Positions 20,488 through 25,781 of a stretch of 64,000 nt of DNA are shown here, piece by piece (position 1 is the first letter of the stretch; the number at the start of each line of letters is the position of its first letter). Below the pieces are notes generated by a model that was given only the letters and a program-made list of their open reading frames with translations, did no database searches and was not told the origin of the DNA. A program made the position numbers and the translations under genes. This stretch comes from a phage: assembly GCA_038450185.1 (NCBI GenBank), contig GCA_038450185.1_4765.1. One strand, given 5' to 3'.

Positions 20488-21723
20488 TTATACTGCCATT
20501 TGAGCGGTGATCGCTGGATGGCTTTGATAGTTGTGAATTTTAAAGTCTTTCGGAGTCTTTGTCAATACCTCATCTAAAGACTTAAATTCCGGCAACTCAA
20601 TTGTTGGTTTATCAAACGGAACACGGCTTAACTGTTCCATAACTTGATCAAAATGGTTTTTGTAAATGTGGCAATCCCCACACTGATAAACCAGTTCGCC
20701 AACTTCTAACCCGCAAATCTTCGCGATGATATGCGTTAACAGTGCATAGCTCGCTACGTTGAACGGATTCCCTAAAAAGAGATCATTCGAACGCATGAAA
20801 AATAAACAACTCAATTTGTTGTCGTTGGAAACATAAAACTGTACCATCGGATGACATACACCTAACACAGCATTATGCGTTTCCTGTACGTTCCATGAAT
20901 CAATGATAATACGACGACTATACGGATCATTCTTGATCATGTCAATAACTTTTTGTAACTGGTCTTCCCAAATCTTCGGGCGATAGACATATTCTTCATC
21001 GTCTTTAGTGCTTGATGTGTCTACGTCCATACTAGCAAAGATCGTGGTATCTGGTGCTAAAATATCCCCACCCAGATAATCACTATCAAGCAGATAACCG
21101 AAATAACCATCATCTACCCATTCCTGGAATCCCCACAAGCAATATGCATCATTAACAAAATTAGATTGAGTCTTCCAGTGATCGGCTACTAAGAATTGAT
21201 TATATTCAGAATCAAACTCTTCATAACGCATACCACGCCAGATAGCACATAAACGGTCTTCTGTTTCATTGGTTGGCGTAAAGTCTTCTACCCACGGGTG
21301 CTTAAATGTATGTGCATATTTGCTCTTAACTCGCTTAATTTTGATTTCACCGTGTGGATGAATCGGTTTGCGTCGCCACGCCATACCATACATATTGCCG
21401 ACATTATAACCATTGAATCGCAAGGGATTCTTTTCTTTCATATCAAGACAGTTGCCGCGCCAAATATCAAAGGCTTCCTCGTCAAACTTGCCGCGTGTAA
21501 TTTCCTGTAAGCGACGGCGGTCAAGTGATCCCTCCATAAACCATAGCAATTCGCCAATTACAGAGGCTGTAGCCATCTTTTTAGTGGTCAGTAAGGGGAA
21601 ACCCTTGCTTAAGTCAATTCGCATTTCTGCACCGAATTTAGAGAGCGTACCTACCCCCGTGCGGTCTTCACGAGGCCAGCCATTATCAAGAACATCACGC
21701 AACAGTTTCAAATATTCTTTCAT
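20488..21723 (-). CDS. td: thymidylate synthase with large internal insertion
   Basis: ORF track; N-terminal DRTGVGT and C-terminal SRRIIIDSWN, LGVCHPMVQFYV, NPFNVASYAL motifs flank an extra ~110-130 aa segment; continuous ORF. Confidence 0.8.
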   Translation of the reverse strand: MKEYLKLLRDVLDNGWPREDRTGVGTLSKFGAEMRIDLSKGFPLLTTKKMATASVIGELLWFMEGSLDRRRLQEITRGKFDEEAFDIWRGNCLDMKEKNPLRFNGYNVGNMYGMAWRRKPIHPHGEIKIKRVKSKYAHTFKHPWVEDFTPTNETEDRLCAIWRGMRYEEFDSEYNQFLVADHWKTQSNFVNDAYCLWGFQEWVDDGYFGYLLDSDYLGGDILAPDTTIFASMDVDTSSTKDDEEYVYRPKIWEDQLQKVIDMIKNDPYSRRIIIDSWNVQETHNAVLGVCHPMVQFYVSNDNKLSCLFFMRSNDLFLGNPFNVASYALLTHIIAKICGLEVGELVYQCGDCHIYKNHFDQVMEQLSRVPFDKPTIELPEFKSLDEVLTKTPKDFKIHNYQSHPAITAQMAV

Positions 21724-21958
21724 CCCACTTCCCCTTTTTCTTTGCTTTCTTACGCAGTTTTGCTACTGTCTCGCTAATGTTAATAAAAATATCGTCTGGA
21801 CCGAATACAGTAACAGGTCTTGATATATCGCTATTTTCTTGTACAGGAAACCATGACGCTTTCGATTCATCATAGAGATATTGCAACCCGTAAAGATCTT
21901 CTGCTACTGCGTAGTTTTCATGGGTTGCCGACCATAATCGAATAATACTGATTTTCAT
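21695..21958 (-). CDS. hypothetical protein
   Basis: ORF track 21695..21985 (GTG); first ATG at 21958 overlaps stop of upstream mini-ORF (TAATG). Confidence 0.35.
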   Translation of the reverse strand: MKISIIRLWSATHENYAVAEDLYGLQYLYDESKASWFPVQENSDISRPVTVFGPDDIFINISETVAKLRKKAKKKGKWDERIFETVA

Positions 21959-22050
21959 TATTGTTCCCGTCCGCAGTGTAAACACCGACTACCAGCAAAC
22001 ATCAAAGATTCACCACAATGTTTGCATTCATAATCTGTCAGAATTTTCAT
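21958..22050 (-). CDS. hypothetical 30-aa zinc-ribbon peptide (CxxC-x13-CxxC)
   Basis: Hand translation MKILTDYECKHCGESLMFAGSRCLHCGREQ; sits between frd stop and next ORF. Confidence 0.3.
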   Translation of the reverse strand: MKILTDYECKHCGESLMFAGSRCLHCGREQ

Positions 22051-22051
22051 G

Positions 22052-22636: not shown

Positions 22637-22966
22637 TCAAATCAGTTTGAAATAGTTTTCGTTTACATTTTCTTCTGTGATTGCTGTCTTAAATTCTTGA
22701 CCGTTATCCGGTGTGATGAAATAACGGTCAGAATAATCACGAAAACGTTTTAAGTGAGATACACCAACATTAACACCATTTTCCCAAAAACGAAAGGTAA
22801 TCATTTTTGGTTCATATCGATAGTCGCTGGTTAACACAGTACCATCACCGCGACGGGCTTCATAAACCGTAATACATTCACGATTGGCGGCTTTTAAGCA
22901 TTCTTCAATAGTGCCGCACGAGATAATACTTACTTTTTCATCTACGATTTGTTCTACAGTCCACAT
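22637..22966 (-). CDS. hypothetical protein
   Basis: ORF track 22637..22999 trimmed to ATG 22966 with AGAGGA SD. Confidence 0.4.
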   Translation of the reverse strand: MWTVEQIVDEKVSIISCGTIEECLKAANRECITVYEARRGDGTVLTSDYRYEPKMITFRFWENGVNVGVSHLKRFRDYSDRYFITPDNGQEFKTAITEENVNENYFKLI

Positions 22967-22997: not shown

Positions 22998-23025
22998 ATT
23001 ATACACTATTGCGTTACGCTGTCAA
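22998..23025 (-). promoter_or_regulatory. early promoter (TTGACA-16-TATAAT)
   Basis: Hexamers upstream of gene starting 22966. Confidence 0.5.
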
Positions 23026-24030
23026 CTCTTTTTCAAAAGTTTTTACGATATACATGATAGTGCTCAATTCAGACGGCGCGACTGTTTCTGTGTAGCCATC
23101 CGGCATATCTTCTTTTGAGATATAGGAAGTTTTACCTTTCATCGCTTCCTTGATCTTGTTCTCTAATTCTAAGATCTTTTGACCGTCTTGTAAAGTCAAT
23201 TCATAAAAGATCTCGTGGTCGAATTTAGATTTCGCTGATTGGTTTCTCATTCGTTCTTGTGTTGTTAAATTGGTTATTCCAAATTTGATTCCATAAAAAC
23301 ATGATTTTTTAATTAGTTTTTGAATGTATAGTGTTCCGTGTTTTAAAGTGTTGTATCCAAATCTAGCACAACTTGAACATCTATTTCCTGATAGAAACCC
23401 GTTAATTGTTGGTGTAAATGTATGACCATTACAACATTGCAATTTTAATTTTGTTGTATTTCCTTTCCATTCACCTATAAATCCATTGAATAGTATGTTT
23501 TCTTTATCAAAGATTGGTTTAATTCTAATAATATAGTCATCTTTGGGTATTGATTTTAATTCTTTCAGTTTTAACCGGTAGCATTCTTGGCAGCGTCTTC
23601 CATTTTTGAAATTGTTAATTGTTGGTGTAAATGTATGTCCATTACAACATTGTAGATTTAATTTTGTCGATGACCTTTTCCATTCACCTATAAATCCATT
23701 GAATAGTATGTTTTCTTTATCAAAGATTGGAGTTAACTTATGTAGATGTTCATCTTCCGAAAAAGATTTCATCCTTCCATTCTTTATGTCTGCACATTTA
23801 TGACAGCGATTTCCAGCGTTGAAATTGTTAATTGTTATTGTAAATGTATGACCATTACAACATTGCAATTTTAATTTTGTTGTATTTCCTTTCCATTCAC
23901 CTATAAATCCAATAAACTTTATATTTTCTTTAAAGAATGTTGGTTTTAATTCTTCGTAGTAATTCACTGGAGATTTTGAATTGTGAGCTTTTCTAACCCA
24001 TTCAATCTCATGTGCTTGACGTACTAACAT
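23014..24030 (-). CDS. triple zinc-finger repeat protein with C-terminal T5orf172 / GIY-YIG-like domain
   Basis: ORF track 23014..24075 trimmed to ATG 24030 with GGAGG SD; three ~70-aa repeats each carrying QCCNGHTFT...C..C; C-terminal FYGIKFGITNLTTQERMRNQ. Confidence 0.5.
   Translation of the reverse strand: MLVRQAHEIEWVRKAHNSKSPVNYYEELKPTFFKENIKFIGFIGEWKGNTTKLKLQCCNGHTFTITINNFNAGNRCHKCADIKNGRMKSFSEDEHLHKLTPIFDKENILFNGFIGEWKRSSTKLNLQCCNGHTFTPTINNFKNGRRCQECYRLKLKELKSIPKDDYIIRIKPIFDKENILFNGFIGEWKGNTTKLKLQCCNGHTFTPTINGFLSGNRCSSCARFGYNTLKHGTLYIQKLIKKSCFYGIKFGITNLTTQERMRNQSAKSKFDHEIFYELTLQDGQKILELENKIKEAMKGKTSYISKEDMPDGYTETVAPSELSTIMYIVKTFEKELTA
23370..23935 (-). repeat. three in-frame tandem repeats of ~210 bp inside CDS 23014..24030
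   Basis: Near-identical nucleotide blocks visible three times in this span, encoding the zinc-finger units. Confidence 0.6.
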
Positions 24031-24060
24031 AATTTTATCCTCCGTTGTTTCTATGGGTGC

Positions 24061-24089
24061 ATTATACATTACCACATCAGCATGTCAAT
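24061..24089 (-). promoter_or_regulatory. early promoter (TTGACA-17-TATAAT)
   Basis: Hexamers upstream of gene starting 24030. Confidence 0.5.
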
Positions 24090-24114: not shown

Positions 24115-24138
24115 AAAAAAGCCTCCCCGAAGGAAGGC
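24115..24138 (-). terminator. intrinsic terminator after gene 32
   Basis: GCCTCCC-cgaa-GGAAGGC hairpin preceded by AAAAAA. Confidence 0.55.
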
Positions 24139-24149
24139 TTTAAAATTCA

Positions 24150-25124
24150 TTACATCCCTAACAGAGCGTCAAGATCATCCAGATCAGAAGCGGAGGAAGT
24201 ACCGCCACCCAGGTCCAGAGATGCCATCAGGTCATCAGCGGAAGAATCTAACGCCGTGCTAGCTGCGTTAATACCAACTACAGTGCTAGCTGCGGTCATA
24301 CCAGAATCGAATGCATTCATCTGTGCGTCAAAATCGTCAAGCTGGCTGTTAATCGCTGCCGCAGCACTGGAAGCCGCAGCACCAGCTACCATAGAAACGC
24401 CCATAGTTTTCTTAAATTTGGTTTCCAGTTCATCGAACGGTTTAAACTGGCTAGGCGCTACAATCTCACTCAGATCAACCATGTTTTCCATCAGATATTT
24501 CTGATATGCTTCGTCTTCAATTTTCGGAAGCTGTGATTGCTGCATGAAACGAGAATCATCATAGTTCTGGTGTTTATCAACCTTCTTAGCTTTCAGGAGG
24601 AAGTTAGCACCGGAGAACACACAAGTTACATCGACCGGAACTTCGCCCATGTCGGTATTCACGTTCACCATTGCAACGATCTTATCATAAATTTTCTGAC
24701 CGAAGCGGAATTTGAATACCTTACCTTCATTTTCTGGTGCTTGAGGATCTTTCAGTACCAGAATATTTGCGTAGTAAGACGCTTTACGCTTAATCAGTTG
24801 CCATTCGGTTTTATCGGTATTGTACAAGTCTTTTTCGTTAATATATTTGCACACAGGGCAAGAATCAAAATCACCGTGGGTGCTAGAGCAGTTTTCCCAA
24901 TACCATTTGCCATTAACTTTGAAGGAATGGTTTACCAGTTTCACAATCGGCAGACCGTCTTCTGTCTTAGACGGCAGGAAGCGAATCAGGGCTTCACCGT
25001 TACCTGCTGCATCAGTCTTAATCTTCCACTCTTTCGGATCTTCTTTGGAGAAACCGTTGCCACCTTTCAGTGCGGCCAGTTGAGCTTGCAATTTGGAGCT
25101 ATCTTGACGACGAAACATGTTCAT
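24150..25124 (-). CDS. 32: single-stranded DNA-binding protein
   Basis: ORF track; strong similarity to recalled T4 gp32 ([36 protein letters not shown], acidic Ser/Asp-rich tail). Confidence 0.9.
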
Positions 25125-25170: not shown

Positions 25171-25199
25171 ACTATATCAGATACTTAATTGCTTGTCAA
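25171..25199 (-). promoter_or_regulatory. possible promoter for gene 32 (TTGACA-17-TATAGT)
   Basis: Hexamers about 45 nt upstream of gene 32 start; overlaps 3' end of HNH gene. Confidence 0.35.
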
Positions 25200-25781
25200 T
25201 ACTTTATCAATTATATCTAACAGTTTTGGCTTTCTATTTTCAAATTCTAACATCTCTTCGGGAGAAATGTCAACTACTTCTGTTTTGTTGAAAAAGTTTG
25301 GGTCTATAGCATCAGCAACAAAGTTTCTCGCAAGTGCTGCCGCTTTCTCATGAACATATATTCCCAAATATATCAACTTCTTTCTTTCGACCTGAATATT
25401 GGCAACATATTTACCATCTCGTTTATAAAGACTAACACCGATATATTCAGACGATCGACCTTTCTGTTTACCCATATTTCTTGAGTTTTGTTGCTCGTTC
25501 GCATCTCTCAAGTTTTCAATCCGATTATCTGTTATAATTCGGTTAACATGGTCAACGTATTTTGGCATGTATCCATGATGCATAAAGAAAATTATTCTAT
25601 GCTCTTTATGATGTTTACCATCGATACACACCAATCTGTATCCATGACTAGGATTAACTCCACCAGCTCTAGATCCGACTTTATGCTTTCGGTTTGTCGA
25701 TATCTTGCAAATCAGCTTACCGTTATCATATTTAAAGAGTTCATGACAACGAGCATACAATTCAGGATCATATGTTTTCAC
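25185..25781 (-). CDS. HNH homing-endonuclease-like protein with AP2-type DNA-binding domain
   Basis: ORF track; HNH core HGYRLVCIDGKHHKEHRII...VDHVNRIITDNRIENLR and AP2-like SEYIGVSLYKRDGKYVA; apparent GTG start with GAGGT SD; inserted between 32 and 59. Confidence 0.55.
   Translation of the reverse strand: MKTYDPELYARCHELFKYDNGKLICKISTNRKHKVGSRAGGVNPSHGYRLVCIDGKHHKEHRIIFFMHHGYMPKYVDHVNRIITDNRIENLRDANEQQNSRNMGKQKGRSSEYIGVSLYKRDGKYVANIQVERKKLIYLGIYVHEKAAALARNFVADAIDPNFFNKTEVVDISPEEMLEFENRKPKLLDIIDKVLTSN

Follow-up and report, generated by a model that had tools for sequence, protein, structure and literature searches.

We examined a 64,000-nucleotide stretch of phage DNA (contig GCA_038450185.1_4765.1 of GenBank assembly GCA_038450185.1; this whole stretch is called the window) and focused on one gene on its minus strand, at 23014..24030, which encodes a 338-aa protein with three CapR zinc fingers followed by a T5orf172-type nuclease domain. 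Judging from its sequence, its predicted structure and its variation among relatives, it is likely to be a free-standing homing-endonuclease-type gene of the CapR-zinc-finger/T5orf172 class in an RB49-like Krischvirus, and it is probably selfish. As such, it would spread by homing, with a target site in the genomes of relatives. The gene is an ordinary though clear example of a published architecture.

The window derives from an RB49-like, T4-type coliphage of the genus Krischvirus. The 1.9 kb around the endonuclease gene is 99.1% identical to Escherichia phage W115, and the same interval matches 59 phage records, nearly all of them Krischvirus coliphages. Along the coding strand, the gene order is gene 59, an HNH/AP2 open reading frame (ORF), gene 32 (ending at 24150), the endonuclease gene, a 109-aa ORF, frd and td. 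The endonuclease reading frame, delineated from the ORF list together with Pfam, PHROG and AlphaFold2 results, runs from an ATG at 24030 to a TAA at 23014-23016, and an identical 338-aa coding sequence is annotated in phage W115. An alternative GTG start at 24075, listed by the ORF finder, is unlikely because it lies within the promoter, and it is not used in the W115 annotation. The protein matches PHROG 681 'endonuclease' (E=1.4e-73), and a search within the 64-kb window found no paralogues of the gene. The original prediction, made from the sequence of the window without database searches, had regarded the slot between frd and gene 32 as empty in T4. This was wrong: T4 carries frd.1, frd.2 and frd.3 there, though no endonuclease gene.

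Tandem CapR-type zinc fingers

The original prediction had also described three repeats of ~70 aa, each with QCCNGHTFT...C..C and encoded by ~210-bp tandem repeats, and our analyses bear this out. Tandem Repeats Finder reports a period of 213 nt (2.5 copies, 80% matches, score 685), and an ungapped repeat search recovers three in-register copies at 213-nt spacing with 78-81% identity. The corresponding protein units (residues 24-94, 95-165 and 166-236) share 58-62% amino acid identity with one another, and every unit contains CCNGHTFT followed, 14 residues on, by C-x2-C. Conservation is concentrated in the core of the unit, which has ~80% nucleotide identity, whereas the linkers have just 27-44%. 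Exact nucleotide runs of 73 nt and 54 nt link repeat 3 with repeats 1 and 2, respectively, and look like traces of recent intragenic recombination.

The proposed zinc-finger identity of these repeats is supported by profile searches. The protein matches the Pfam CapR homology domain PF21817 in three separate stretches (80.7 bits, cutoff 24.2, E=9e-23) and, more weakly, DUF4379, a 'probable treble clef zinc finger' (25.1 bits, cutoff 24.5, E=2e-5). In 226 repeats from family members, Cys is found in 96% at the positions of C128, C147 and C150, and His in 63% at that of H132; another 15% have the His shifted by one position towards the N-terminus. The 'CC' pair is conserved only in its first Cys. 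Because the three Cys columns and the His column are conserved and the second Cys is not, the zinc ligands are likely to follow the pattern C-x3-H-x14-C-x2-C. Repeat and alignment analyses place the putative ligands at C57, H61, C76 and C79 in repeat 1 (residues 24-94; 23749..23961, minus strand), at C128, H132, C147 and C150 in repeat 2 (residues 95-165; 23536..23748, minus strand), and at C199, H203, C218 and C221 in the finger part of repeat 3 (residues 166-224; 23359..23535, minus strand). In the full-length AlphaFold2 model (pLDDT, the predicted local distance difference test, of 96), the unit starts with a helix, followed by a small sheet and a second, short helix, and ends in a linker helix; repeat 3 has no linker helix and passes directly into the nuclease domain. 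CapR domains were first defined in CapR, a repressor of the PLE satellite, where mutation of the cysteines abolishes DNA binding, and the same study recognised that they also make up the DNA-binding portion of T5orf172 homing endonuclease genes in phages (PMC8096241). We infer that the three-finger array of the window protein likewise binds DNA.

The predicted C-terminal nuclease domain

Residues 225-338 (23017..23358, minus strand) form a nuclease domain with a T5orf172/MUG113-type GIY-YIG fold. Neither the full protein nor its isolated C-terminal 109 aa matches the T5orf172, MUG113 or GIY-YIG families of Pfam, even at E<=1; an NCBIfam scan of the C-terminal domain gave no match, and a sequence-profile search of the PDB with this domain returned only chance matches to ribosomal protein S5. 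A Foldseek search of the PDB with the full-length three-finger model yielded no match at E<=0.001 and only noise, headed by tandem double-stranded-RNA-binding and glyoxalase-fold proteins with a template-modelling (TM) score of about 0.1, and the nuclease domain was therefore modelled alone. The isolated model (pLDDT 97) has the beta-beta-alpha-beta-alpha core of the GIY-YIG fold, and among its structural matches in BFVD (TM 0.8-0.9) are phage proteins that carry the names CapR-homology, GIY-YIG, homing endonuclease and T5 Orf172.

Evidence at the level of the family points in the same direction. When 1.84 billion representative proteins were searched exhaustively with phmmer, 372 relatives were identified, and the nuclease domain lies 25 residues or less from the C-terminus in 154 of 156 proteins. 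Ninety sequences, comprising homologues and the window protein, which itself matches neither MUG113 nor T5orf172, were scanned against Pfam: 31 match MUG113, 12 T5orf172, 56 CapR, 41 DUF4379 and 26 DUF723. A consensus of 156 C-terminal domains passes the thresholds of both T5orf172 (PF10544; 24.9 bits, cutoff 20, covering profile positions 1-95 of 101) and MUG113 (PF13455; 26.9 bits, cutoff 22.3); against canonical GIY-YIG (PF01541), the consensus reaches 12.3 bits (cutoff 22.6, E=0.21). The T5orf172/GIY-YIG-like C-terminus proposed from the KFGIT..R motif (residues 249-260) thus gained its profile support through the family profiles, and conservation of the ORF was found as well, in the form of alleles in other Krischvirus genomes.

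Across 141 aligned family members, eight residues do not vary (Y235, K249, G251, R260, E290, G312, E315 and T316), and the window protein keeps all of them. The order Y...K-x-G...R...E, falling on strand 1, strand 2, helix 1 and helix 2, is the GIY-YIG pattern, and on the basis of this motif order and the secondary-structure positions, Y235, K249-x-G251, R260 and E290 are putative equivalents of the catalytic residues of I-TevI. By tblastn, the nuclease domain is 39% identical to T5.141 (Orf141; E=1e-13), the database record of which mentions similarity to RB49 ORF239c, and 42% identical to the endonuclease of Vibrio phage Helene (VPBG_00042). Both T5 Orf141 and the Helene endonuclease are discussed as homing endonucleases in the literature, and Helene is an example used by Barth et al. 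(PMC10448857). Four independent lines of evidence, among them homologues, consensus and conserved residues, assign the C-terminal domain to the GIY-YIG superfamily, in its T5orf172/MUG113 branch. We infer that this domain is an endonuclease that cleaves DNA.

The missing direct Pfam nuclease match would also fit a DNA-binding regulator without nuclease activity, similar to the CapR repressor or the anti-CRISPR CasPR, in which the finger array would occupy a specific site and thereby block transcription, and the C-terminal domain would be catalytically dead or have another role. CapR domains alone repress in PLE CapR (PMC8096241) and in CasPRs, and the ICP1 relatives have no canonical GIY-YIG motif according to Netter et al. 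(PMC8096241). However, CapR and CasPRs have no T5orf172 domain, whereas the window protein has one that is modelled at pLDDT 97 and keeps every residue that is invariant across the family alignment, including the Arg and Glu columns; in the sole T5orf172 nuclease tested, activity needed the Glu that had been inferred by alignment with GIY-YIG enzymes (PMC10448857). Because all invariant family residues are kept in the nuclease domain, we consider a pure repressor role very improbable.

Alleles at the gene 32-frd slot

The slot, which lies between gene 32 and the small ORF that precedes frd, differs widely in content among relatives. In PHB13 it is empty (126 bp, with a single promoter), in kvi it holds only an unrelated 109-aa ORF, and in FL37 a 417-aa endonuclease stands together with a kvi-type unrelated 109-aa ORF. 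MIZ4 carries a 5'-decayed copy with a stop after about 27 codons (positions 1564-1941 of the MIZ4 sequence), and its annotated part is only a C-terminal remnant of 182-185 aa labelled 'endonuclease'. The nuclease domain of MIZ4 is ~51% identical to that of the window, as is also the case in Sf20, and therefore represents a second, more divergent lineage in the same slot. Presence/absence polymorphism at a fixed site, accompanied by decayed copies, is a pattern expected of homing genes.

Where the gene is present, alleles of 338 aa with three fingers (window and W115), 392 aa (GEC-3S and Skers), 485 aa (RB49) and 542 aa with six fingers (Delraymugoa) are found, and metagenome-derived relatives add further alleles of 196 and 265 aa. 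Their lengths step by ~71 aa, corresponding to 1 to 6 fingers and six length classes at the slot, so that the variation in repeat copy number suggested in the original prediction does occur among relatives; as that prediction proposed, it may tune the recognition of DNA. Among alleles, the last ~75 codons, which encode the end of the nuclease domain, are nearly the same, but the finger arrays have diverged strongly, which makes the alleles mosaics. The three fingers of the window protein are each other's nearest relatives, which points to their having arisen by expansion or conversion within the allele.

A more far-reaching interpretation is that the slot holds a natural allelic series of modular zinc-finger nucleases, in which a near-fixed nuclease domain is combined with 1-6 recombining fingers that each add a few base pairs of specificity. 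Shuffling of fingers would then retarget alleles in an arms race of co-infecting phages, each cutting the locus of its rivals. We offer this interpretation as speculation and regard it as unlikely.

With regard to annotation, the RB49 and GEC-3S alleles are labelled 'endonuclease' in RefSeq, and one submitter used 'putative GIY-YIG nuclease family protein'. We also observed by tblastn that FL37 (PP400783) and AV108 (OR352938) each have a second place matching the nuclease domain (two per record), and that the sole match in pEJ01 (OP114734), at 326-631, is a 37% identical copy near the start of the record. The endonuclease family may thus occupy other insertion sites in Krischvirus.

Promoter cassettes and slot boundaries

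The original prediction had assigned the gene its own early promoter, and the promoter scan agrees: a perfect sigma-70-type early promoter (TTGACA-16 nt-TATAAT, 12 of 12 consensus positions) lies at 24061..24088 on the minus strand, reading from 24088 to 24061. It is kept in relatives, even in those with a different ORF or none at the slot, and is an annotated promoter in GEC-3S. A ribosome-binding site, GGAGGA, can be read from the sequence 7 nt 5' of the ATG (24038..24043, minus strand). On the other side of the promoter, 3' of gene 32, the terminator scan identified an intrinsic terminator hairpin (24118..24141, minus strand; AAAGCCTTCCTTCGGGGAGGCTTT, then a T run), which is kept in 5 of 5 aligned relatives and is an annotated terminator in phage GEC-3S. 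An AT-rich stretch separates hairpin and promoter, and the stem-loop forms part of a cassette resembling the promoter-early stem-loop (PeSL) cassettes.

A second perfect consensus early promoter, located by promoter scan and alignment at 22998..23025 (minus strand), drives transcription of the downstream 109-aa ORF. Its -35 hexamer overlaps with the final codons and the stop of the endonuclease gene, and the right-hand edge of the cassette lies here. The downstream 109-aa ORF itself (22637-22966, minus strand, starting MWTVEQ) has no Pfam match.

The consensus early promoter is one of several features that would suit a domesticated sequence-specific nuclease benefiting the phage by early cutting of competitor (marker exclusion), satellite or host DNA, as Odn, a T5orf172 nuclease of ICP1, does against PLE satellites. 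Such a promoter is unlike the endonuclease-specific promoters described for T4, the near-invariance of the last ~75 aa of the nuclease domain across otherwise divergent alleles could reflect such a benefit, and Mt1B1_P17 is among the structural matches. Nevertheless, many close relatives lack the gene, carry another in its place or hold a decayed copy, so that it is dispensable, and its fingers are of the CapR type typical of homing genes rather than of the RepA_N type copied from a satellite. On balance, we regard domestication as unlikely.

The two promoter regions that bracket the gene are related: they form a 71-nt direct repeat with 70% identity, and a scan of the 64-kb window for the extended motif that they share gives these two places and no other, where no chance occurrence is expected. 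The variable segment has the same limits in all alleles and also for the unrelated 109-aa ORF, running from the start codon to the -35 hexamer of the next promoter. At the empty PHB13 site, the promoter part of the single element matches the kvi upstream promoter and the stretch just before the next ATG resembles the downstream cassette. These features raise the question of whether the gene is an ordinary accessory cassette that owes its movement entirely to homologous recombination between the early-promoter (PeSL-like) repeats on either side, with the nuclease uninvolved in its spread. Shuffling mediated by PeSL elements has been shown experimentally in RB49 and phi1 (PMC2839356). However, recombination between promoters would leave unexplained why a conserved nuclease is carried along with a fast-diversifying DNA-recognition array, and the defining stem-loop of the PeSL is found only on the upstream element, which combines stem-loop, AT-rich stretch and promoter; the terminator scan found no stem-loop at the downstream element. 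Moreover, movement by recombination and movement by homing are not mutually exclusive, and as the only explanation for the spread of the gene we consider promoter recombination distinctly improbable.

Identity islands and the case for homing

We compared divergence within and around the gene in two genome pairs. Between the window and W115, there are 0 mismatches in the 1017-nt endonuclease ORF. Gene 32, the downstream 109-aa ORF and frd have 2.0-3.2 differences per 100 nt in this comparison, and the figure rises to 6-14 at greater distance. Had the 1017-nt ORF diverged at the rate of its flanks (about 2.4%), it would contain ~25 differences. Between GEC-3S and Skers, the endonuclease gene differs by 1.1-2.3 per 100 nt and gene 32 by 2.3, whereas the flanks differ by 11.8 in the upstream intergenic region, 23.9 in the downstream 109-aa ORF and 9.5 in frd. 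The downstream 109-aa ORF, with 2.7 differences per 100 nt between the window and W115, is thus far more divergent in this second pair, and the right-hand edge of the endonuclease gene therefore falls at a sharp change in divergence. In both pairs the gene is closer than its flanks, as is expected of a homing gene, and this points to a recent lateral spread of the endonuclease gene; promoter-mediated recombination could give the same pattern.

Several observations weigh against a homing gene and should be considered when interpreting these results. The exact 338-aa protein is on record in only two contigs, and the allele is therefore not sweeping. The substitutions at the 3' end of gene 32 do not track the presence or absence of the endonuclease gene and provide no mark of a target, so that no target can be proposed from them. 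Alignment of the family by hhalign with the proven T4 GIY-YIG homing enzymes I-TevI and SegG gives a probability of <1%, and this lack of profile similarity rules out membership of the Seg family. The consensus early promoter is a misfit with the pattern in T4, since none of the endonuclease-specific promoters described in the promoter survey of a T4 review is early (PMC2988022). Finally, recombination between the flanking promoters, a process documented for RB49 and phi1 (PMC2839356), could account for the identity island as well as for the presence and absence of the gene among relatives with no nuclease at work, and homing and promoter-cassette recombination are inseparable by sequence data alone.

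If the gene is a homing endonuclease gene, as we favour, host RNA polymerase would transcribe it early in infection from its own consensus sigma-70 promoter. The three treble-clef fingers, joined by helical linkers like beads on a string, would read an extended DNA site, and the C-terminal GIY-YIG-fold domain would cut nearby DNA. In a mixed infection with a relative that lacks the allele, the carrier genome would serve as the template for repair of the break, and the rival would thereby acquire the gene along with some of its flanking sequence. The near-identical repeat blocks would permit in-frame gain, loss and reshuffling of fingers, giving rise to alleles with other finger numbers and presumably other targets. 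The two flanking, related promoter cassettes may provide a second, nuclease-independent route by which the gene is moved or deleted through homologous recombination.

Comparison with known systems

The CapR/T5orf172 architecture, with beads-on-a-string fingers, in-frame gain and loss of repeats and a position beside essential genes, is known from ICP1, T5-like, Vibrio and Aeromonas phages (PMC10448857), and the architecture was also published by Netter et al. in 2021 (PMC8096241). ICP1 Gp174, Gp165 and Gp130, Helene VPBG_00042 and T5 Orf141 all combine the same N-terminal array of one to several CapR/DUF723/DUF4379-type fingers with a C-terminal T5orf172 domain as in the window protein. The ICP1-type genes and the window gene also have in common repetitive fingers, variable presence between isolates, decayed copies and adjoining essential replication genes. 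They differ in that the host lineage of the window gene is a T4-related Krischvirus and in that the window gene forms a promoter-bounded cassette; in addition, the ligand pattern C-x3-H...C-x2-C of the window fingers contrasts with the CxxC...CxC reported for CapR (PMC8096241). Barth et al. (2023) noted that T4 itself has no T5orf172 genes and did not mention RB49 or Krischvirus (PMC10448857). Their Pfam-based screen would miss the window protein because it falls below the Pfam thresholds used.

PLE CapR and the CasPRs contain the same PF21817 finger module as the window protein, and CasPRs may have more than one CapR domain. These proteins have no nuclease domain and block transcription, whereas the window protein has an apparently intact T5orf172 domain.

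Seg enzymes have an N-terminal nuclease domain and are not known to carry a zinc-finger array. Unlike theirs, the nuclease domain of the window protein is C-terminal, and it has no detectable profile similarity to SegG. T4 SegG (PMC2988022) and the window gene are alike in being free-standing endonucleases beside gene 32 in a T4-type replication module, with a GIY-YIG-superfamily fold and variable presence. We also considered whether segG occupies the slot of the window gene in T4, but the T4 record places segG between genes 59 and 32, on the opposite side of gene 32.

The slot further resembles the PeSL cassettes of RB49 and phi1 (Arbiol et al. 2010, PMC2839356; Comeau et al. 2014, PMC4122927), with which it shares an upstream stem-loop terminator, an AT-rich stretch and a sigma-70 early promoter, followed downstream by a related promoter. 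In both, the intervening ORF is swapped, lost or replaced among close relatives. The slot differs from these cassettes in its missing downstream stem-loop, its location in the replication module and its cargo, which is a nuclease gene with a potential mobility of its own rather than an ORFan. The PeSL paper does not discuss this slot and makes no mention of gene 32, frd or ORF239, and we found no paper describing the Krischvirus gene 32-frd endonuclease locus.

Our analysis extends the CapR/T5orf172 homing-gene class into the T4-related coliphages, the group in which homing biology is best understood, although studies there have been confined to the Seg, Mob and intron-encoded enzymes. Specialists will find the domain assignment unsurprising; an allelic series of 1 to 6 fingers at one locus, on the other hand, is a useful natural experiment. 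In E. coli phages that are easily crossed, this tractable series, with its near-constant nuclease domain and its empty and decayed sites, could be used to ask how target specificity depends on the number and identity of fingers, and which of the two processes, homing or promoter-cassette recombination, moves the gene. If a simple finger-to-sequence code were true, these proteins would be a natural analogue, from bacterial viruses, of engineered zinc-finger nucleases and would offer a compact scaffold that can be programmed. In addition, the proteins are at present variously annotated as 'hypothetical', 'endonuclease' or 'GIY-YIG', and could be given consistent names.

Neighbouring genes

Between gene 32 and gene 59, a 198-aa ORF (25185-25781, minus strand) matches HNH_3 (E=2e-11) and AP2 (E=7e-5). 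It occupies the slot held by SegG in T4, is present in kvi and is absent from W115, RB49 and Delraymugoa. With the endonuclease gene on one side and this ORF on the other, gene 32 is bracketed by two putative homing endonuclease genes (HEGs) of different families, an arrangement similar to the 'HEG island' of Barth et al.

The thymidylate synthase gene td (20488-21723, minus strand) encodes 411 aa, of which residues 2-411 are spanned by a Pfam match that covers only 266 profile positions; an in-frame insertion of ~140 aa is therefore present, and the insertion has no Pfam match. The td genes of RB49, Delraymugoa and W115 are of similar length (1221-1233 nt). The td-frd spacer (21724-22051) is the most divergent stretch relative to W115, with 14 mismatches per 100 nt. 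In RB49 and Delraymugoa this spacer contains two small ORFs, which are unannotated in W115, and it may represent another variable cassette site.

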